Shown in pieces: positions 3,772 through 21,700 of a DNA stretch of 64,000 bases. The position numbers and the translations under genes are program-made. Where the stretch lies: assembly GCA_963825865.1 (NCBI GenBank), contig CAWGVG010000029.1:96001-160000 (forward strand), written 5' to 3'. The notes under the pieces are model-generated. The model saw only the letters and a program-made list of their open reading frames with translations. It was not told the DNA's origin and ran no database searches. The stretch's first letter is position 1. Each line of letters opens with the position of its first letter. This stretch comes from an uncultured Nitrososphaeraceae archaeon. Lineage in GTDB: Archaea; Thermoproteota; Nitrososphaeria; Nitrososphaerales; Nitrososphaeraceae.

Positions 3772-4029
3772 TTATTTTATTTGTTCGTTTTGATAATATT
3801 TGCTATTTTCGTTTTTATTTCCATCTCCCTTTTTCCATATCTGTATTTGACCGCCATATACCTCATTTTCATAGACAAATGATGGCACTTGAGCATAATA
3901 CCCTTCTCTACCTGATTTAAATGTCTTGGGCGGTAGTGGTATTTCATGTTCTTTCCCATCTGGCATCCTAAGTATTGCAACTGCAATCCTGCTTTTTGTT
4001 TTTTGTTTTTCATAATCATCTGAAGTCAA
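3772..4029 (-). CDS. Hypothetical protein
   Basis: 85-aa ORF with globular composition (PPKTFKSGREGYYAQ...YGGQIQIWKKG). Confidence 0.65.
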   Translation of the reverse strand: MTSDDYEKQKTKSRIAVAILRMPDGKEHEIPLPPKTFKSGREGYYAQVPSFVYENEVYGGQIQIWKKGDGNKNENSKYYQNEQIK

Positions 4030-4438
4030 ATTCTACTATGACTTGTCATAATCGGTAGTTTTAATGTTTAATACCTTTTGAGTATTTCAAATTGAAAATC
4101 CTATACTAATAAATTAATGTATTCAATATACTTGAGAGATAACAATTTTTGCTCTTATTTTATTATTTGTATTAATTATATCGAAGAGTATAAAGCGTAA
4201 AAAAGTAATACTATAAGAGGGAATGATTTCTCTTATTTCTGCAGTTGTTATTTTCCTTGTGCCTTTTAGTATCCGCGTTCTCTGATGCGCTCGGACTTGT
4301 TGCACCAATGTAACTTATCACGCTAGCCTTGTTTATTATATCACCTAATTAAGGTCCCCAATCTTATTGTTGGATCTTTTGTAAAGTAACCTTTAATTGT
4401 GATTAAAAATCCATTCAATTCGGATTAGACTAGAAAAT

Positions 4439-5581
4439 ATGATTAGTTTCTTCCTACTGCAACTTAATAGCATTTTTGGACCTGGAGGTGGATCTGATTC
4501 AGGTAATAATCCTCTTTCATATATTCTCTGGTTTGCACCTATCTTCATTTTGATGATGTATGGTCAGAAATTTCAATCATGGATGATTCTCAGCGATATT
4601 TCAAAATCCTTAACCAAGCTAAAGACTATGAAAGAAACGGCGAGGAAAGAAGCAATAGAGTATGTTAAAACATCAATTAAGCCTTCAACTGACCCATGTG
4701 AAAAAATTGACAAATTTCTAGAATATTTTACAATTATGCCTGTTGACCTTGATCCGAATGGGATTATAGGAAAGCTTGATCACATAATGAGAACTAGAGA
4801 TGAAAGGGTTCGATCTGAAATAAAGAGAATGGCTGATGGAATGAGCGAATCGCATGCTTCTCGTATGGAAAACATTCTAGAGGCTGCAACTGCTCTCAAC
4901 ATGATTTACAAGGTCGTAAGGCACTTTTACCTCATGGGTAAACGTACTACAAGCATGTTTGTACTTGTACAGCTGGAAATGGTGATGCCGCTTTTATTAC
5001 AAGAAGCAGAGGCTTTGCAGAAGGCAATAAGTGCATTTAAAAAGGGTCTACCAATTGGGGATAGCATAGGTCCAATGGTTGTTGGCAAAATGATGATTGG
5101 AAAGGAAAAGAAAGTAATCGCAAGAGAAACTGTCTACAGCGAAGACGAGTATATGGATAGAAAATTATATTTGCTCAAAGCAGAAGGACCAGGCGGTACG
5201 GTAGGTAGACCTGGAGAGGCGGTTCAAAGGATAGTTGGAGAGATAGGATTGAAAATTGATGCCATCATAATGATAGATGCTGCAATGAAGCTGGAAGGCG
5301 AAAAAACCGGCTCCATTGCTGAAGGTATTGGAGCTGCCATAGGTGGCATCGGCGTTGAGAAATACCAGATTGAAGAAGTTGCAACAAGGTTCAATATTCC
5401 TGTTTACGCAGTCATAGTAAAACAATCTATCCAGGATGCAATTACGATTATGCGGAAAGAGATTTCTGATTCGTTTGATAAGGTAAGCAAGACAGTACTC
5501 ACTGTAATTGAAGATAAGACTTCTGCGGGACAATCAGTTTTAATTATCGGCATTGGAAATACATTAGGAGTTTCGCAATAG
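4439..5581 (+). CDS. DUF1512 family protein
   Basis: N-terminal TM helix; PVDLDPNGII, PIGDSIGP, KAEGPGGTVGRPG, IDAAMKLEGE and GIGNTLGV motifs. Confidence 0.88.
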   Translation: MISFFLLQLNSIFGPGGGSDSGNNPLSYILWFAPIFILMMYGQKFQSWMILSDISKSLTKLKTMKETARKEAIEYVKTSIKPSTDPCEKIDKFLEYFTIMPVDLDPNGIIGKLDHIMRTRDERVRSEIKRMADGMSESHASRMENILEAATALNMIYKVVRHFYLMGKRTTSMFVLVQLEMVMPLLLQEAEALQKAISAFKKGLPIGDSIGPMVVGKMMIGKEKKVIARETVYSEDEYMDRKLYLLKAEGPGGTVGRPGEAVQRIVGEIGLKIDAIIMIDAAMKLEGEKTGSIAEGIGAAIGGIGVEKYQIEEVATRFNIPVYAVIVKQSIQDAITIMRKEISDSFDKVSKTVLTVIEDKTSAGQSVLIIGIGNTLGVSQ

Positions 5582-5584
5582 TAA

Positions 5585-5803
5585 TTGTTGTTTTTTGGAA
5601 AGAAGAAAAAAGAAGAGACTCCAACTCTTTACACTGAAGAAGCATGTCAAAGTTGTGGCGAAAAGAACAGGAGAGCTTTTCAAGATAGTGATTATATTTA
5701 CAAAAGCAGCTCAAGATGTAATAAGTGCTCTGGAACTGCTATGATTACTGCAATTTATGGCGAATATCCATCAGAGAAAAAACAAAAACAAAAACAACTA
5801 TAG
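5585..5803 (+). CDS. Small Zn-ribbon protein co-transcribed with DUF1512
   Basis: CQSC...RAFQDSDYI...CNKC...ITAIYGE; starts 3 nt after the DUF1512 stop. Confidence 0.8.
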   Translation: MLFFGKKKKEETPTLYTEEACQSCGEKNRRAFQDSDYIYKSSSRCNKCSGTAMITAIYGEYPSEKKQKQKQL

Positions 5804-5822
5804 AGGACTTACACAATAAAAG

Positions 5823-5844
5823 ACTAACTAACTAGTTTGATAGT
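5823..5844 (+). repeat. Left copy of 22-bp direct repeat (putative attL)
   Basis: ACTAACTAACTAGTTTGATAGT, 20/22 identical to 11308..11329. Confidence 0.7.
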
Positions 5845-5908
5845 TTGTATAGAATACTAACTTATATCTAAGTCTATCATATAGATATTGCTGAGAATAA
5901 CATAAATA

Positions 5909-8105
5909 ATGCAAAAATTTCATTAGCTAAGTCAAAATTAAAGTCAAAAGAAGCCATTATTAGTAATACCATTTCTACTACTTCTTCTAGCTATACTCCC
6001 AATATTGATAAGGAAAGCCTACAGTAAGATAGAAAACATTACAGAAGGACTTTCTGCTAACTGCTTTAATTTTCTATATAATAAAATATTGCCAGCATCA
6101 GAAAGTAATGCCTTAACAATTTGTGATTATATTTCTTCTATGAAGTCAGAAATTAATTTAGTTGACCATTATAGAAAAGACGTAATAATTCTGCTTAGTA
6201 ATTTCTCAATCTTTCATAAAAATCAAAAGCCATTCAAATCTATAACAAGAGAAGACATACTTGCATTCTTAGATAGTTATAGAAAGCCAGAAAGCTCAGA
6301 TCTACTCCATAAATGGATAGGCACTTACAACACATATAGAATGCATTTAATGAGATTTTTCAAGTGGCTATATTATCCGGATATAGAACAGAAGAAAAGA
6401 CCAAACCCATCAGTTATTGAAAATATTGCACGGCTTAAAAGAAAAGAAACTTCCATTTACAAGCCAACTGATTTGTGGTCAGAAGAAGATGACATATTAT
6501 TTTTAAAATATTGTCCGTCAAAGAGAATCAAATGTTATCATGCTATCTCAAGGGATACGAGCTGCAGGCCCCATGAGATATTGAAATTAAGGATAAAAGA
6601 TATTGTGTTTAAAACTGCAGGTAATTATCAATATGCAGAAGTTCTAGTTAATGGGAAAACTGGAACAGACATATACCTTTGATAAATTCCATTCCCTTTG
6701 TAAAGGACTATCTGGATCATGAGCATCCACAAAGTGGAAATCCAAATTCAATATTTATCTGTGGAAATGGCAAGAGCATAGGTAAGAGCCTAGGCATTAA
6801 TATCTCTTGTGTAATTAGAAGCTTAGAGCTATATTCCTCTTCACATAGGATATCTATCTGACAAGCTCTTTGATGTCCTATAGCAAATTATGTAAGAAAC
6901 CTTTGATATTCAGGTCATTTACCGGAGTAACTGTATCTGAATTTGAATCCATTTGTAACGAAATTGAACATAACTACGAAGAGCACGAAAGAAGACGTCT
7001 TCTATCAAGGATGAGAATACGGGATATAGGTGCTGGTAGACCATTTAAGCTTAAAGTTAAAGAAAGATTCGTTATGCTTCTAGTATACTACAGATTATAC
7101 ATTACATATACATTATCAGGATTTCTGTTTGACCTTGATCAGAAGCAATGTTTGTAGAGATATATCAATGATGGAACCACTTATCAAGGAGTGTATTCCA
7201 TTGCCAAAGAAGATATACAAACGTCCTAGGAGATTAAGAACTATAGATGAAGTAGAAGAGTACTTTCCTGGATTCAAGGCTTTCATAGACTCTACAGAAC
7301 AAGAAATTCCAAGACCTAAGAACAAAAGAAGAAGGAAGAGTTACTATTCAGGTAGAAAGAAGAAACATACTGTCAAGACACAATTGATGGTAAACCAGTG
7401 AAGGATTGATACTGCATAAGACAGGTCACAGAAGTGGAAGAAAACATGATTATGACATTTACAAACACAATCATTCTATAACTCCATCACAAGTTGAAAA
7501 CATAGTTAATATTGGTTATCTTGGCATTGAAAAGGACTTTCCCACTGTAAATCTGTACTTGGTATCAAAAAGAAAAAGGGTACATTGCTTTCATGTGATG
7601 AAAGAACTTACAACAAGAATCATTCTAGGCTAAGGATCATAGTAGAACATACCATATGTAGAATCAAAAAGTTTGGAATAATGGGTATAAATTTAGAAAC
7701 AGATTAAGGAAGTACGAATAACGTATCTGATATAATATCCGGTCTCCTGAACTTCAGAGTTATACAGTCTGACAGCATTTCAATCTAAGAAGACGGCTAA
7801 AACAAGTAGGGTGTTAGACTATCGCTGCTAATTACGCAGAGATCTATTATAACTCTGTATCAAATATATGATAGATACAAAAAAGAATACTTTCCTAAAT
7901 TATTAGAAAACAATCCAAACGTTCCGCCTGAAGACAAGCAAAAGATTAAAGAATTACTCAAGAAGCCTTGGAACCCATATATTAGAAGACACTCCGCATT
8001 GACAGACAAATCAAAAATATTGAAACATGTATTAAGGCAGCATGCTGGCTGGTCTGGAAATCACAGATGCCACAAAAATATCTCCATTACTTTGGCAATG
8101 AATGT
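5909..8105 (+). pseudogene. Tyrosine site-specific integrase, interrupted by an IS (6800..7845) and truncated
   Basis: SAM-like N-domain (HKWIGTYNTY), RDTSCRPHEIL (catalytic R), NGKTG; after the IS KKPWNPYIRRHSALT (RRH), QHAGWS and KYLHYFGNE (catalytic Y). Confidence 0.88.
6800..7845 (+). mobile_element. IS5-like (DDE_Tnp_4/ISL2-Harbinger type) insertion sequence; frameshifted transposase 6870..7788
   Basis: FRSFTG, GAGRPFKL, LVYYRLY, FIDSTEQEIPRP, YSGRKKKHTVKTQ and GRKHDY motifs; imperfect TIRs TCTCTTGTGTAATTAG / CTAATTACGCAGAGA; ATTA duplicated at 6796-6799 and 7846-7849. Confidence 0.9.
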
Positions 8106-8237
8106 TTTAATGGTTAATGCATGCCTAGGTGCATATCTGTATCTAGACAATTCAATTCATCTAACAATATTGTACAACTGACCGAGTTGGACTACATCAG
8201 AATAACATACAGGATTTAAAAATTCAATAAAAACATG

Positions 8238-8290
8238 GTCAGATAAGTCAGTTAGGTCAGATAACTAACATAAAAGTCAGAAAGATAACT
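8238..8290 (+). repeat. Cluster of GTCAG(A/T)(T/A)A direct repeats
   Basis: GTCAG at 8238, 8247, 8256 and 8276 in intergenic DNA. Confidence 0.5.
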
Positions 8291-8386
8291 TGCACTTTGG
8301 TTAGTCATAAGTAATATCAATTTGGCCTGGCAAAGTCTCATGGTTTAATAGATCTTATCTTTTATTTTTCACAAAGCGATATTTGT

Positions 8387-8794
8387 TCATTTGTCAAGTT
8401 GCTTCATAATAGTAGATATCACTTCCTTTAGAGAAAATGGTTTTTGAATAAACCCATCAATTTTCAAAGATGATAAACGTGTATACATGGATCATTGATG
8501 TCAAATGTCGACATTAGTATTACCTTAACTGACGGAACTATTTCCCTCACCTTCTTTGCAAATTCAAATCCATTCATCGCCGGCATCCTTACATCGCAAA
8601 TAATTAGAGAATAATTTTTAGAATTGAGAATGAAATGTTCAAAGGCCAACAAAGGGTTTGTAAATCCAAATGTGCGGTATCTATGCCTTTGTAGCAGATG
8701 TTTGATGAGTGTGACAATATCCACTTCGTCATCAAGCACTAATATGGTCTTATGTGCTGATGTTGAAGATGTTTTCTTATCCTCAAGACTTCAT
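8387..8794 (-). CDS. Stand-alone response regulator receiver protein (frameshifted)
   Basis: ILVLDDEVDI, CDVRMPAMNGFE, VILMST; an alternative frame supplies IDGFIQKPFS...QLDK*. Confidence 0.85.
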
Positions 8795-8841
8795 ATCGCT
8801 AGCAATATCGCTAGCGTTATATTAATCTATCGCTAGCGATA
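8795..8841. promoter_or_regulatory. Three ATCGCTAGC boxes, one a perfect 14-bp palindrome (TATCGCTAGCGATA), around a TATA-like element
   Basis: Copies at 8795, 8807 and 8829 immediately upstream of the receiver gene. Confidence 0.55.
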
Positions 8842-9299
8842 AATTAGACAATAAGTTGCCATAGGAATTTTTTTAAACTATACAGGATAACAATATGCTG
8901 ATAACGACCCGTTTATGGTACCTTTATGGTCACATGGAACTCGTGCTGCTGTTTATGTCGAGGTGAGTATAAGCTAGGACACATCCGACAAAGGTCGTCG
9001 ACGGAGCGTTTTTAGTATAATCCAGTTATAGTTGAATGATTGTAAGTGTCATTTCATATTTTGATCGAAAATGATTCTGATAGAAAAGAAGCTTCCATTC
9101 TGCTGCCTTGTTGTTTCCTCAAGTTCTTACAACCTTGTAGATAGAGCTACAAGTTGGTCTGATAATTGTGTTATGACAGTAGTAGTAGAAGTAAGTCAGT
9201 TGGTTACTTTTCTAGCAGAAGTTCTAGGGTATACGATATAATTGATAATACTCTTTCTCATCCAGAGGCACGAGCATGGAGTATAAGAATTCATAGAGA

Positions 9300-9690
9300 T
9301 AGTATTGGCCAAGATCCAAAATTACTCTATCATTTTTTAAATAATAGGTAAGTAATTTGAAAAATCACTACTATCTGCATTGTATGAATCATATTTGCTA
9401 TACCTCCGTTTATTGTCCAAACTTCCATTGTCTTGATTATCAACATATCACTATGTGTATATTCGATTTTATATGATGAGTTAAGAGCAGGAGTTGTTAA
9501 TGGATTCAACTCAATTAGTTGAAAATTCTGCAAGCTCGATTTATAGGATGAAACTAGTGAATCAGCAAACTGTTTTAGAGATGTGTTTTGAGAATGTAAT
9601 TTTTTTACCACTATCACAAGGTTTTCTAATATGCCAGAGTCGTTTTCTGATGGTGGACTGAATTCAGCAATAGGAAGGCTGCTATTGACA
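9300..9690 (-). pseudogene. PsbP-like secreted protein fragment
   Basis: AEFSPPSENDSGILENLVIVV...SLKQFADS...YKIEYT...KTMEVWTINGG...FSNYLP; no intact start, frameshifted. Confidence 0.6.
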
Positions 9691-9775
9691 TAATACTTTC
9701 CAATACTATATAGAAAAAATATGCAATGTTAATCAAATTTTATATATTCTTAAATCTAACTGATAATATTTACTA

Positions 9776-10932
9776 TTGTCAAAGCCCAAGATAAATTCCA
9801 AACAAATGGCAGTTATTATTCTTGCTATATCAGCATATGTTATATTAGCAGCATATTTACCAAATGTATCTTTTAGTCAACTACCCTTTCTTCCAGCAGA
9901 TCAAGGCAGCAGTATCTGAGAAAAATCATACAATTACACATGGCAATAATAATAACAATAGCAGCACATCATCCACCAAGCCCTGGAGCAACCAATTCAT
10001 TTTCGTACTCTTTAAATATGATAACAAACACAACAAAACCAGAATCTTTACCATCACAAACAAAAACTATCGACGTTACAAACCTTTCTCATAAAGGAGT
10101 AGATAAATTTGGTATTGCAATGCTTTATCCTACAAAACCCAATGGAGAACAATGGTATATGAATATGAGCAGTCCTACAAGCGACCCAAGGTTTAACCTT
10201 AATAATCCATATAAGCATGTAGGAAAATCTTCTATTTCAAAATTTAACTTTACCAAGAATTCCGATGGCTCATGGAAGGTAATTTCACCAAAGGTAAGAA
10301 TGGAAGCTTATACATCAACTGGTTATAATCAGAGTAAAATGACTACTTACAATCAATCAGAATTAGCTCCTAAAGGCTATATGCAATCACCTGATGATTG
10401 GAAAAATGCCGAAATTACAGGTTATATAAAATACAATGGAGGTAAGAAGGCTGACGAAAATTTTGATTGGTATGCAAGAGGAGGAATACATACGGATGCA
10501 AATAAAGGATGTGAAGGAACAGCTTATAAAGGAAATTTGTATTATTCTGGCAACTCCGATTTTGGAAAAGAGCAGTGGCATGAAAATGGTTTTGTTAGCA
10601 CAGATGAAAAGATAAATGTAACTTCTCCACTAAAAGGAAAATGGATTGGCTTTAAACTTGCAATGTATAACTTATCCCCTACACTTAAGAATGGATCTAT
10701 GTCTGTAAAGCTGGAAAACTGGATCAATGAAAATGCTGACGGTAAAACATGGAAAAAGGTGGATGAGAAAATTGATGATGGTGGCTGGGGAAAAGATGGT
10801 GGACGTTGCGGAGGAAGACCTGATCAAATTATAACATGGGGGGGTCCTGTTGCTACTTTTAGATGGGATGGAGCAAATGAAGTAGATATAAAGAATTTTA
10901 GTGTAAGAGAGATTCAGCCTACTACAAAATGA
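9776..10932 (+). CDS. Secreted protein with a Trp/Gly-rich beta domain (frameshifts in the N-terminal part)
   Basis: Signal-like MAVIILAISAYVILAAY upstream, Asn/Ser/Thr linker, then DKFGI...WYARGGIH...CEGTAYKG...KEQWH...ITWGGPVATFRWD. Confidence 0.75.
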
Positions 10933-11307
10933 TAGAAAATAGCTGTTGTTATCTCAATGTGCAAGACATTGTAGGTGCTAACTCATGCAGAGCAGTTATT
11001 ACTTCATTTATATTCTTTCCCAGAACTTGTCAATACTAGCAAAGATTCCATATTCCTAGAATCAAAACAAAAGATGATCCTTGACATTCAGACTTCTATA
11101 GAAAGAAACATGATGATCGCTGAACAATTTGTAAGTTATGGAGTGGCCGCAAAATGGTGGTATCAAAGTATCAGGTTTCTAATCATATAGTTATTTATGG
11201 TGCGTTATATTACCTTTATTTAGTATTATAAAGATGGTTAATAATGCCTCGAGACATTTTGACTACCACTATAACCTATATGTATTGATAGTAAGTTACT
11301 TTTCTCA

Positions 11308-11329
11308 ACTATCTATCTAGTTTGATAGT
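11308..11329 (+). repeat. Right copy of 22-bp direct repeat (putative attR)
   Basis: ACTATCTATCTAGTTTGATAGT; arms ACTATCTA/TTGATAGT around a 6-bp spacer; ends 3 nt from the map stop codon. Confidence 0.7.
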
Positions 11330-11332
11330 ATC

Positions 11333-12230
11333 TCACAATGTAATAACGTTGATAGAAGTATCTGAAGGAATTAGTGTATGTTCGGCTTGAGCAACTATTT
11401 TTCCATTTCCTTCAACAAGAATAGGATATGCATGTACATTCCTTTTCTTTATTAAAATTTCCATAGATTGACGCGCCTTTTTCTCTTCGTATTTGTCCAT
11501 CATCCATCTGAGAGCGAATGGTAAAGTCTTGAATCTATTCCACGTATGTTCAAGAAACTCATCTACCTCTTTTTCTTTAGTTGGTTTGCGAGAAATTATG
11601 CCAAAGATATTGCGAGTCTTGCCTTCATAAACTACTCCTTGACCATCTTTTGTGGTTACAAAAGGTTCGATAGCATATGCTTGATTAGGAACTAGGATAA
11701 ATGATGACCCAATAGTCCAGATATTTGGTATTGATCTACCTGCATGAATAGTGTATTGCTCTAGCGAATGACCGCTCAAGTTCTGAATAGGTCTGAATCC
11801 TTGCTTTGAAATCGTATTTTCGATTACCTTTCCAATATCACTAGCTTTTGTATTAGCTTTAGCAATCCTGACTGCTTCGCTTAAAGCGTTCTCGGCAGTT
11901 TTTACTAGTGTTTCGTATTTTGGATTATAACAAACAGTCACCGCTGTATCAGCAATATATCCTTGTATATGCACACCAATATCGATCTTTAAAACATCAG
12001 CATCTTTTACCATAATCTGGTCATTTGGTTCTGCTGTATAGTGAGCTGCCTATGTCATTCAAACTAACATTAACCGGAAAGGCAGGTGCCGCATCCTTTC
12101 TTCTAATTTCAGCTTCTATTGATTCACAAATTTGAAGCAGGGTGGAGCCAATATAATATTTTTTTCGTGTATTTTCCCGTACTTCAGATGCTATCTTGCC
12201 GGCCTGCTTATAGCAATCTAAAAAATTCAT
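11333..12230 (-). CDS. map: Methionine aminopeptidase type II (1-nt frameshift near 12050)
   Basis: AFPVNVSLN, KIDIGVHIQGYIADTA, NLSGH, IHAG, AIEPF and QAEHT motifs across two ORFs. Confidence 0.95.
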
Positions 12231-12342
12231 ACGCTAAAAACTTCTTGAAGCTAGTAATATATATACAAATATTGTCATGACGAAGCTTAAAATTATACTG
12301 ATGAATAGTACATTAAGGAAATAATTCTTTGGAATTGAGCGG

Positions 12343-12416
12343 GGGGTCGTTGTCTAGCTTGGTATGATGCCAGCCTTGGGCGCTGGAGGCCGCCGGTTCA
12401 AATCCGGCCGACCCCA
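12343..12416 (+). tRNA. tRNA-Pro (anticodon UGG), intronless, no encoded CCA
   Basis: Acceptor GGGGTCG/CGACCCC, anticodon arm CCAGC-CTTGGGC-GCTGG, T-arm GCCGG-TTCAAAT-CCGGC. Confidence 0.97.
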
Positions 12417-12666
12417 GTAAACTCTTCAAATTCTTAAAACAATAGATAAAGAATTATGATGTTACGTCGATCATAAATATCCTAAATGCGGTATTAGATC
12501 TATGACCGCAGTAACTACAATGAAGAGGTTAACTACATTTGTTTTAATATCTGTAATATTGACATCAGTGTTTCTTATAACTAACACCCATTCAGCATCT
12601 GCACAGTGAAACCATACTGAATACCATAGAATAGTTCTCAATTGTTTAATTCACTATAAAAAATCA

Positions 12667-12745
12667 ACCCTGACGGATTAGCTAAATACATATTTTTGTT
12701 AGTAAATCGTGCTCAAATCACTAGTAGTATTGAATCCGTCAGGGT
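12667..12745. repeat. 79-bp unit bounded by a perfect 13-bp inverted repeat (MITE or IS-end remnant)
   Basis: ACCCTGACGGATT (12667-12679) and AATCCGTCAGGGT (12733-12745). Confidence 0.6.
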
Positions 12746-13080
12746 ATCCATAATAACCATAGTGCATATTCAATTCTAGAATTAATAAAAAAGAACTAAC
12801 TAAGTTGGAAAGTTATCGTCAAATACTAATCAATCACCAATAAGATAAGCAAAAAAATATTAACCGCTTAAAAGTGGTGTAGATGCAGTAACATACATTA
12901 TTCATTTCATCTATAAATAAGTTATAATGAATATTTACTATAGATTGGTAAATCAATTACTATACCACGTTTGATATACTCAATAGTTATACTAAATAAA
13001 TTAGCAGTAAATCATATTAGATAAATCAGCAGTAACTTCGCCAAGTCAAATATATAGATGACATCGTATTGAGAATATAA

Positions 13081-13443
13081 ATGAACAACACAGCAATAAC
13101 TACTCTAACAATAGCTGCCATCTTGGCAGCAACATTAGTAGTAGGAGTAACGCTGGCAACAACAACAACAGCAATAACTGCATTTGCATCTAGTAGAGGA
13201 AATGGTAATGGTAACACAGATACCGATCAGATAGCCAAGCAAAAAGCATATGTAAGTGGATTTGATAACTCATTCAATCAAGAACTTCAAAACCTGATAT
13301 GCACCCATCCAAGCGCCTCTTGTACAGTAGAGCAAACTCCTACTCCACCGCCGCCACCTCCACCACCTCCAAGTGATGACGACGACGGCGAGGATCGCCA
13401 CGACGATCCAAAAAAAATGGATGACATGAGCAAATACTGGTAG
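13081..13443 (+). CDS. Small secreted protein with a Cys pair and poly-Pro/acidic tail
   Basis: Hydrophobic signal ending TAFA; SGFDNSFNQELQNLICTHPSASC; PPPPPPPPP-DDDD. Confidence 0.75.
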   Translation: MNNTAITTLTIAAILAATLVVGVTLATTTTAITAFASSRGNGNGNTDTDQIAKQKAYVSGFDNSFNQELQNLICTHPSASCTVEQTPTPPPPPPPPPSDDDDGEDRHDDPKKMDDMSKYW

Positions 13444-13599
13444 TTCTTTATTACTACCACAACTTTTTTTCTTTTTTGCATCTGCGCAAGAATAAAAATC
13501 TATTTGCAAACGCTTTTACTTGTTTTAACTTGGTTTCAGAACATACTATTATTCGCTTAACATGCTGACACCAACAGTGTAAGGATCCTTAAGGATCTG

Positions 13600-19931: not shown

Positions 19932-20269
19932 AAATTGGCATGCATTATGTTCATTGAATTGAGCAGCAACTCATGTTTGATCAACTGTCTGAATATCATT
20001 TTAATGTTGACAAGTCTTGGTTGAGATCATTAAATTTACTGTATATTTTTGTCCGAAGAATATCCAAGAGTATTATCATTCCCACTAGTGAATTCGGTTC
20101 TGACTTCTGTTTAATACTCTCAGAAGATTGTCCCAAAACATTCTCAAATTATGATATAAGATCATTTAAGCTTTTGAAGAGATGTGTTTGCTTGGCTGAA
20201 GTGACTGTTCATTTCCTTAACTATCTGAGACATGGGCATAATTCATTTCTATATTTTTTATCTATCATT

Positions 20270-21366
20270 TAGTGCTGCATTAACTACATAACATGTGTTT
20301 GATTGATTTTGGTCGTTGACTAGGTCTGGTTTTATAATTGTAGTAGACAAGGATTTGATACAGTAGTACTGACAGAAGTACTATTCCAGCAGCCTTCTGA
20401 TAGCCTCTTACCTGTAATGGGTCTATTCTAAAAATAGATTTAATATGTTCTATTAGTGGTTCTATCGATTTACTTCTCCAAGAGTAAATAGCCTGTCCTA
20501 ACTCAGATTCATAGAATTGTATCAGCTCTAGTCTATTCTTTGGGGTATTTTTGTACCTTTGTACTGGACATACCAGTTCAAATCCTCTTTTAGTACCTCA
20601 AATCATATAGTTTATTGTCGTCATACCCAGAATCACCTATCATGAAACATGTTTCTAGGAACAGAGATGATGATGATGATGATATCATAGGATTGTACAT
20701 TTGATTATCCTGTACATTAGCAGTTGTAAAATCTGCTCCTAAAGGTACTATGGTAGAACCAGTACTTGATATCAAATGTAGTTTGTAACCAAATATCCAA
20801 CCTCTGGTATGACTGAATCCCCACCTGGCATCTGTATCTATACCTGAACGTGGTACTATTCCTTTATCCATAGATGATTTGTGCCAAACATGTCCTCTGG
20901 CTTTGAGCAATGTACTATCTATTGCAACAATATAAGGGTCTATTATCTTCCCATTTACTAATAGACTAGTCATAGTAGCAATCCTTTCCTTGATGTCTAT
21001 GGATATGGTCTTAAGACGTCTGTCAAATGTTCGTCTATCTGGTATTTGGGTAAGACCACATCTTTTCATTATCTTCTTATTGTAAGGGTAATCCATTCCT
21101 AGGAATTCATGTAATGCGTTGTTAGAATCCATTCTAAACCACAATCTGACTATGAAACATCGTAGTATGACAGTAGAAGAATAGACGTATGGTCTACCTC
21201 TTTTTTTCATCTTTTGTGATTCTGGCCATGGTATCAAGCCTATCAAATACAGAATACCAATAAGGATGGATTCTGAACTATCATGTGCTGTCCTTTGAGG
21301 ATGTTTTATTATATGTCATCACAAATTCAGACATCCAAAGGATAGCTTTAGCCTAATTCATCAATA
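20270..21366 (-). mobile_element. IS4-superfamily (DDE_Tnp_1) insertion sequence; transposase ~20280..21300 with frameshifts
   Basis: RGRPYVYS, IPDRRTFDRRL, AIDSTL, FGYKLHL, GDSGYD; continuation R-SKS-IEPLIEHIK; weak TIR TAGTGCTGCATTAA / CTAATTCATCAATA (10/14). Confidence 0.85.
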
Positions 21367-21394
21367 TATATTTGCAAAAAATAGAGCTGGATTT

Positions 21395-21700
21395 ATGTCC
21401 AATCGTCAGGTAGCTGCACAACACGAATATGCCTTATTTTTTTCGAGGTCACCATCAGCAAAAGTTGCCCAAATTTCTATAGCACCAGATAAAAAAACTC
21501 ACATCTACAAACCAGATGAGAATGGTAAATGGTTTGAGGAACGTAATCTTAGAAAAGAGGGAGCCGATAGCTTTGCTAGTACAGACTCAAAAAGATACTA
21601 TCCAATTTATTATGATCCAAAAACAGACAAATTAAGCACAAACACCAAGTATCAAATTGAAATTCTACCGATTGATACCCGTGGTCAAAAGAGGATATGG
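21395..21700 (+). pseudogene. Internal fragment of a type III R-M methyltransferase (Mod)
   Basis: HEYALFFS...DENG...NLRKEG...YYPIYYD...ILP...G..RIWR pattern of Mod target-recognition regions. Confidence 0.65.

Follow-up and report, generated by a model that had tools for sequence, protein, structure and literature searches.

A probable cryptic integrated element bounded by short att-like repeats between two conserved genes of a Nitrososphaeraceae archaeon

The genome assembly of an uncultured Nitrososphaeraceae archaeon (GCA_963825865.1; 62 contigs, 4.98 Mb, G+C content 35.5%) was examined in a stretch of 64,000 nucleotides (the window: positions 96001 to 160000 of contig CAWGVG010000029.1, here C29). 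Near its beginning, a DUF1512 gene and a small Zn-ribbon gene are separated from the convergent methionine aminopeptidase gene, map, by DNA that holds the remains of an integrase gene, an insertion sequence (IS), a broken receiver-domain gene and a frameshifted gene encoding a probable secreted or membrane-anchored protein (Table 1). This 5,485-bp stretch is very probably a cryptic integrated element, and the two copies of a 22-bp direct repeat at its borders (5823-5844 and 11308-11329) are very probably its attL and attR sites. A preliminary description of the window had reported the repeat pair, and its positions and spacing were borne out: the copies are identical at 20 of 22 bases, the left copy starts 19 nt past the stop codon of the Zn-ribbon gene (5801-5803), and the right copy ends 3 nt short of that of map (11333-11335, minus strand). 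Throughout the 4.98-Mb assembly, with up to 3 mismatches allowed, each copy matches only its partner. Because synteny fixes the borders of the insertion independently, the null model chosen for the repeat took two random AT-rich stretches of 80 nt from the same genome and scored their best 22-mer identity; at least 20/22 was reached by 1 of 3000 such pairs. No tRNA gene touches the element: the nearest, and the only match in an Rfam search, is a tRNA-Pro gene (12343-12416) on the far side of map.

Comparison of gene order indicates that the DNA between the repeats is extra. The DUF1512 protein was searched in 41 genomes (the window's own and 40 related genomes), of which 28 gave matches, and 30 loci were fetched. 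With the window's own locus set aside, the Zn-ribbon gene is followed directly by convergent map at 22 of 29 loci, the two matches ending 3 to 93 nt apart at 21 of these and 539 nt apart at one; the other seven loci are contig ends, paralogues, or have no map within 1.5 kb. In the window, the stop codons of the two genes are 5,529 nt apart. The locus thus has what an integrated element presents, namely extra DNA relative to a conserved synteny, with direct repeats on both sides. These relatives belong to other genera (best amino acid identity 87%), and their spacers are not alignable with the repeat. The Zn-ribbon/map spacer of one distant relative (L012, in genome G032) contains ACTAACTAATTAACTAACC, which is like the left half of the repeat and is probably stop-rich spacer sequence.

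An empty locus holding a single copy of the repeat, which the preliminary description had named as a way to check the insertion, was found among metagenome contigs of the JGI, with the caveats that it comes from one relative and that a small transposable element sits in the site. The DUF1512 protein, used as query against these contigs, found three loci at 96% amino acid identity, of which L162 (contig Ga0173483_10000299) alone extends far enough. Its DUF1512, Zn-ribbon and map proteins are 96%, 92% and 96% identical to those of the window, and its flanks are 93-95% identical at the nucleotide level. About 340 nt lie between its Zn-ribbon gene and map; the element is absent, and no integrase was found at the locus. 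Alignment to the window breaks off at 5837 and is taken up again at 11317, both points being inside the repeat, at the spacer of its core. The 289 nt between the two homology blocks (L162:4396-4684) match both ends of an IS family in the window's genome, and are therefore a miniature inverted-repeat transposable element (MITE), which is flanked by 6-bp target duplications (AATAGT/ACTAGT). In the related IS, 7 of 8 near-identical full copies with both ends are flanked by 6-bp target duplications that read RNTANN. Once the MITE and one duplication copy are taken out, L162 contains one repeat copy, ATTAACTAACTAGTTTCATAGC, collinear with the predicted attB site. It is identical to attL at 19 of 22 positions and to attR at 17 (retaining the other duplication copy gives 18 and 16), and its left half resembles that of attL, as the integration model predicts for a host-derived arm.

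The window's own genome contains a sister element on contig C21 (31141-49193, 18,052 bp; loci L031 and L036), which is the only place where a blastn search with the insert found a matching start, at window position 5840. Its integrase gene (C21:31294-32616), encoding protein P0001, is a whole frame of 440 amino acids while integrated, and matches the window at 80% identity over 964 nt and then 82% over 263 nt, with the IS skipped exactly. The right ends are likewise homologous (window 11278-11316 and C21:49147-49186, 87.5% over 40 nt). Homology between the two elements is limited to the left end with the integrase and this 40-nt right end, with nothing between, so that by sequence comparison these parts look like a conserved attP-integrase module opened at its core. 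The C21 element has a repeat of its own, TGCTGC(C)TAATAGTTTA, placed relative to the conserved ends as in the window, and its flanks are the two halves of a minus-strand helicase gene, split exactly. When the element was removed in silico and the attR version of the repeat was kept, an open helicase frame of 506 codons resulted, and the peptide across the junction, KNLINCAENKLLAAVGIIATKHPSER, aligns collinearly with an intact paralogue. The proposal that the window's repeat is the att site of an element integrated outside tRNA genes is thus upheld by synteny, by the empty site of L162 and by the homologous ends of the sister element.

In the attR sites of both elements, a perfect inverted repeat of 5-6-5 layout lies equally far from a common TTTTCTCAAC: CTATC-TAGTTT-GATAG in the window and CTATT-GCTGCT-AATAG on C21. 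The spacers are unrelated, and the inner arm pair differs by a change, C.G to T.A, that keeps the arms complementary. In this genome, any one position begins such a perfect repeat with a probability of 0.0015. The left arms of the attL sites are imperfect (CTAAC in the window and CTACT on C21), and both mismatches between attL and attR of the window lie left of the spacer, in this arm; this fits attL being composed of host arm, spacer and element arm, and attR of element arm, spacer and host arm. Because the repeats include the spacer and the right arm, attP would be as symmetric as attR. The preliminary description had compared the site with loxP and dif, and had drawn arms ACTATCTA/TTGATAGT with 7 of 8 positions complementary (counted by hand in the window). 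The inverted arms around a 6-bp spacer stand, being present in two elements, whereas the register was displaced: ACTATCTA-N6-TTGATAGT is complementary at 3 of 8 positions on C21, and exists in the window because CTATC occurs twice in tandem, while the conserved register is 5-6-5. In having two inverted arms around a 6-bp spacer, with attL and attR hybrids of the expected make-up, the site resembles the core of lambda attB/attP as well as loxP and dif. The strictly symmetric arms of loxP are 13 bp and those of dif 11 bp; unlike these, the arms of the window's site are only 5 bp.

Taken together, these features make it very probable that site-specific recombination of the tyrosine-recombinase type brought the element into the 44 nt that separated the convergent Zn-ribbon and map genes. 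The attP site of the element would have carried the symmetric core CTATC-TAGTTT-GATAG beside the integrase gene, and the chromosomal site would have read CTAAC-TAGTTT-GATAG. Partners at core-type sites of tyrosine recombinases must be identical across the spacer; exchange across the 6-bp spacer would then have produced attL, with the left arm of the host and the right arm of the element, and attR, with the left arm of the element and the right arm of the host. The model implies a circular form of the element, cleavage positions at the core and, presumably, catalysis by the element's own integrase. Decay came later, by entry of the IS into the integrase gene, frameshifts, loss of the C-terminal Zn ribbon and breakage of the cargo genes.

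Several observations weigh against this model. The window's integrase is broken, so its own action cannot be demonstrated. The layout of arms and spacer rests on two elements, and a further right end, on contig C26, has a poor right arm. No clean empty site was seen: the element-free site comes from one relative, and its single-copy state relies on an inferred target duplication, with the MITE sitting in the site. The attL site of the C21 element has an extra C, and the helicase frame is shifted if the attL version of the repeat is kept. The 22-mer recurs nowhere else in its own genome beyond the pair and is not enriched across the family. A search for direct repeats in the 10-kb flanks of 21 related integrase loci in other genomes (those with enough downstream DNA among 28 that have a conserved upstream box, ATAGAATACTAACTTATAT, described below) gave best scores of 10-14, compared with 10-11 for a reversed control, and nothing that stood out from the control. 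No circular attP junction was seen.

The alternative that survives best, improbable as it is, accepts the att sites as genuine and has the element moved in trans by a paralogous integrase, its own enzyme being either not the catalyst or already dead. Integrase paralogues or fragments, found by tblastn on 22 of the 62 contigs, could have supplied such an activity, and the window's copy is broken; however, the integrase gene lies directly beside attL and forms with both ends a module that is kept in the sister element, and an IS-free public stretch, 96-97% identical, makes the breakage look recent. A second alternative, close to refuted, is that the repeat is a chance or regulatory motif of the two spacers, and that the 5.5 kb arrived otherwise, for example by IS-mediated rearrangement. 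AT-rich spacers do have short words in common, the longest exact run within the repeat is 13 nt, and there is an IS in the region, but L162 has a single copy with the homology breakpoints within it, the sister element combines homologous ends with a repeat of its own at the same offset, and only the one random pair in 3000 was as similar. Least probable of all is that a transposase or casposase created the repeat by duplicating its target site: transposons also have flanking direct repeats, and casposons exist in thaumarchaea according to parts of a published survey (Krupovic et al. 2019, PMC6563490), but 22 bp with mismatches in one half only is unlike a fill-in duplication, no inverted repeat pairing the ends was found in a scan of 4000-13500, the sole transposase found belongs to the nested IS, and the single-copy site of L162 already holds the dyad-symmetric sequence.

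The contents of the element are listed in Table 1.

Table 1. Features of the element and its host flanks (positions in the window)
Feature	Position	Strand	Basis or remark
DUF1512 gene (host, conserved left flank)	4439..5581	+	Pfam PF07431 and PF23542
Zn-ribbon gene, 72 amino acids (host, conserved left flank)	5585..5803	+	3' of DUF1512 in relatives; L162 copy 92% identical
attL (B arm - overlap - P' arm), very probable	5823..5844	+	CTAAC 5828-5832, TAGTTT spacer 5833-5838, GATAG 5839-5843
Conserved left end of element with box ATAGAATACTAACTTATAT (5849-5867)	5845..5867	+	homologous to C21:31143 onward
Integrase pseudogene, 5' part, frameshift near 6680	6005..6801	+	tblastn to P0001; Pfam SAM-like N-domain
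IS in integrase gene; transposase (HTH_Tnp_4 + DDE_Tnp_4) frameshifted	6802..7848	+	Pfam
Integrase pseudogene, 3' part, frameshift near 8055, reaches catalytic-Tyr region	7845..8103	+	tblastn to P0001
CheY-like receiver gene, broken; open part 8464-8739 (91 amino acids)	8357..8778	-	Pfam PF00072
Frameshifted gene, probable secreted or membrane-anchored protein, Nitrososphaerota-only family	9776..10932	+	open reading frames 9776-9919 and 9940-10932
Conserved right end (GTATTGATAGTAAGTTACTTTTCTCAA...) with further TTGATAG copy	11278..11307	+	homology to C21
attR (P arm - overlap - B' arm), very probable	11308..11329	+	CTATC 11313-11317, TAGTTT spacer 11318-11323, GATAG 11324-11328; perfect inverted repeat
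map, methionine aminopeptidase gene (host, conserved right flank)	11333..12230	-	Pfam PF00557; convergent with Zn-ribbon gene

The integrase gene had been described as starting about 65 nt inside the left repeat copy, which needs correction: the ATG at 5909 meets an in-frame TAG (5924-5926) after five codons, and the frame homologous to integrases opens at 6005, 160 nt inside the copy. Compared by tblastn with intact P0001, the 5' part matches in two frames, at 84% over residues 4-216 and 74% over residues 216-274, and the 3' part matches residues 259-329 and 332-345, also in two frames, with nothing beyond; the fragments range from 74 to 100% identity. Nucleotide homology to C21 (blastn) ends at 8103, just past the catalytic-Tyr motif, and about 95 C-terminal residues, including the Zn ribbon, are lost. 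The IS that cuts the gene at about 6801 is 1.05 kb long and has 41 other copies in the genome at 95-99% identity, a number of near-identical copies that is a sign of recent expansion. The copy in the window has 6 private indels in comparison with 6 other copies, which have just 2 indel columns among themselves. A second IS group comprises about 15 copies that are 74-76% identical. The parent IS family of the MITE at L162 has ends TGAGRCTGGGRCATAA... or TGACGATTGGACATAAA..., often beside TTAGTTAGT- or CTAACTAAC-like sequence, and a copy of 1,183 bp without a matching duplication is present at 20226-21408 of the window.

For the receiver gene, a paralogue on contig C33 (87.6% identical) covers the whole of the broken stretch. 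Just upstream of it, at 8794-8849, are three copies of a 14-nt palindromic unit (TATCGCTAGCGATA-like) that may be an operator. The first frame of the frameshifted cargo gene encodes the hydrophobic N-terminus of its product; the gene has paralogues on contigs C60, C62 and C27, and Atlas clusters from Nitrososphaerota. Searches of PHROG gave no match for the cargo of the element, and the 330-residue protein of this gene has no Pfam or NCBIfam match; the Atlas only hints, weakly, at polysaccharide lyases (score 0.90; 130 features in common). The insert has two further open reading frames, of 95 amino acids (without relatives) and 71 amino acids. Open frames of at least 120 amino acids cover 35-43% of positions 6001-10000, compared with mostly 60-90% elsewhere in the window. 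To judge from its IS, frameshifts, lost integrase C-terminus and broken cargo genes, the window's element is an immobile relic in its own genome.

The occupied site was also sought in public contigs from four soil or rhizosphere runs of four studies. A contig of run X5 bridges attL (4500-5890), and contigs of X3 (11032-11569) and X5 (11276-12300) bridge attR; therefore the same occupied site exists elsewhere. The interior of the element (about 5900-9700) is thinly and patchily covered. One X5 contig joins 6782 to 7846, that is, it has the integrase stretch (96-97% identical) without the IS. Contigs of X1, X2 and X5 have one base fewer at 12049, and single-base indels distinguish these contigs at 9753, 9916 and 9967; the frameshifts of map and of the cargo gene are therefore private to the assembly, as errors or strain mutations. 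In the window, a one-base insertion at 12049-12050 splits map into frames of 69 and 226 amino acids; map is an essential gene, and the insertion is likely to be either an error of the assembly or a private mutation. Among the contigs of the four runs, none is listed that joins about 5844 to about 11329, but contigs drop rare variants, so this carries little weight. Elsewhere, a 27-mer spanning the left flank and attL had no match in the JGI metagenome contigs, a 26-mer of attR, expected in attP too, had none in IMG/VR, and an integrase profile, used with two patterns, found no relative in IMG/VR.

The preliminary description went further in taking the 22-mer to be the target site of this integrase type and to lie, as a rule, in intergenic DNA, and in these respects it did not hold. 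Among 237 other genomes of the family, the 22-mer has 2 matches (2 mismatches each), compared with 6 for a reversed control, and there is no integrase within 1.5 kb of either match. The sister element, the integrase of which is about 80% identical at the nucleotide level, uses another site, within the coding sequence of the helicase gene. A 17-mer of the right end is exact in the window, on C21, on C26 and at one unrelated place in another genome; family-wide, its 26 matches in 25 other genomes compare with about 60 for the control, and none of the 26 goes on like an att core.

The integrase is a divergent tyrosine recombinase. P0001 matches the PHROG 1 integrase family (E 8e-15, residues 52-352), and of 25 close homologues 15 match PF00589, the best at E 3.6e-8, although P0001 does not match it at E 0.01. 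The Pfam matches of P0001 are a SAM-like N-domain and Zn ribbons only, and Zn-ribbon models match the C-terminus of all 25 close homologues. The NCBIfam model XerA scores 19.7 bits against P0001, compared with a cut-off of 220, and no recombinase was found when the PDB was searched by sequence, either with the integrase or with its profile. An AlphaFold2 model of P0001 has a mean pLDDT (predicted local distance difference test) score of 67.6, its catalytic C-terminal part being poorly modelled. The first 20 PDB matches of this model in Foldseek (E up to 0.001) are XerH, Cre/Tre and XerA, with probability 1.0 and template modelling scores of 0.25-0.53; the best fold matches are XerH, Cre, XerA, Tn1549 Int, IntI and XerD, and P0001 is accordingly predicted to have a two-domain fold of the Cre/Xer type. 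Residues R183, K213, R306, W328, Y338 and Y341, presumed from their motifs to be catalytic, do not vary among 25 sequences; three residues before R306, Tyr takes the place of the usual His. Homologues are abundant, with 4070 database proteins at E up to 1e-10 (best identity about 70%), mostly from soil metagenomes, and 80 related integrase loci were fetched from metagenome-assembled genomes of Nitrososphaeraceae. In 28 of 76 related loci (L039-L118), the box ATAGAATACTAACTTATAT, with up to 4 mismatches allowed, is found upstream of the integrase start, at a distance of 20-210 nt; it is probably the integrase promoter or a region of arm sites.

Elements of this class have been described before. 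The consulted parts of the survey of Krupovic et al. (PMC6563490) count 68 integrated elements of thaumarchaea, 39 in tRNA genes, 15 in intergenic regions and 14 in the 3' ends of protein-coding genes, give a median att length of 17 bp, and mention IS insertions and CheY-like cargo. The premise that integration outside tRNA genes would be novel is weakened by the 29 of 68 elements for which it is recorded there. In its small size, possession of an integrase, short and slightly imperfect att sites and non-tRNA target, and also in having the integrase directly inside attL, a CheY-like receiver and a nested IS, the window's element resembles the cryptic elements described in those parts of the survey. 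An example is NitEve-E2 of Ca. Nitrososphaera evergladensis, which, by its description there, lies just after a small Zn-finger gene and has its integrase 57 nt further on. The att sequence of NitEve-E2, given as ATAACGCACACAA, is different, the window's site is 19 nt past the stop codon and not inside the gene, and the window's element is far more decayed.

The element contains the whole integrase gene, and the copy of the sister is unsplit, which is not the arrangement of SSV-type ('suicidal') integrases, where attP is within the gene and integration splits it; like the pNOB8-type (non-suicidal) integrases described in sections of PMC8371274, the gene stays whole on integration, as shown by the intact 440 amino acids of the sister. 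P0001 differs from these types in its distance from all solved or curated archaeal models and in its C-terminal Zn ribbon. As stated in those sections of PMC8371274, no test of recombination has ever been made at archaeal att sites between or within genes, and dyad symmetry at such sites is open; for this question, the present locus offers a definite symmetric core of 16 bp and, in the sister, a natural integrase that is intact. It is also a well-bounded example of non-tRNA integration in soil Nitrososphaeraceae, with the occupied site, a nearly empty counterpart in a relative and a sister element by which the host-derived and element-derived halves of the att sites can be distinguished. With the class of element, short att sites and non-tRNA targets already described, the locus is otherwise ordinary, and what it adds is small: a symmetric 16-bp core recognized by comparison and an intact sister integrase.

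A tentative and rather unlikely extension is that this integrase family recognizes only the minimal symmetric core CTAnY-N6-RATAG, the 6-bp spacer being free to change. If so, a change of spacer alone would let sister elements reach new non-tRNA targets, the enzyme would be a naturally re-aimable archaeal recombinase, and the sister would exemplify an element that enters a conserved helicase gene while carrying a spare intact copy of it. The C21 element does carry an intact paralogue of the split helicase near its right end (C21:47505-48908), and this copy is closer to the orthologues of relatives (82-85%, tblastn) than the split copy is (69-80%). The helicase is present in 24 of 24 family genomes searched, and no common neighbours were found within 1.5 kb of it in relatives. 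Other genes of the C21 element encode a PolB fragment, a PfkB kinase and a metallo-beta-lactamase-fold protein.

Two further element ends were noted in the genome. One, on contig C26 (39766-39802), is a third right end that continues with TATCTAT-TCTGTA-TCTTAGT; it has a secreted-protein gene on one side and ABC-transporter permease genes on the other. Neither an integrase nor a partner repeat was found in its vicinity, and it may be a solo relic. On contig C15 (position 190699, minus strand) is a third integrase paralogue, 54-68% identical and frameshifted, with a similar left end, ATATAGTTTGGAATAGAATACC, for which no partner repeat was found within 80 kb. This left end overlaps the stop codon of a metallophosphoesterase-like gene, so named by eye from its sequence.

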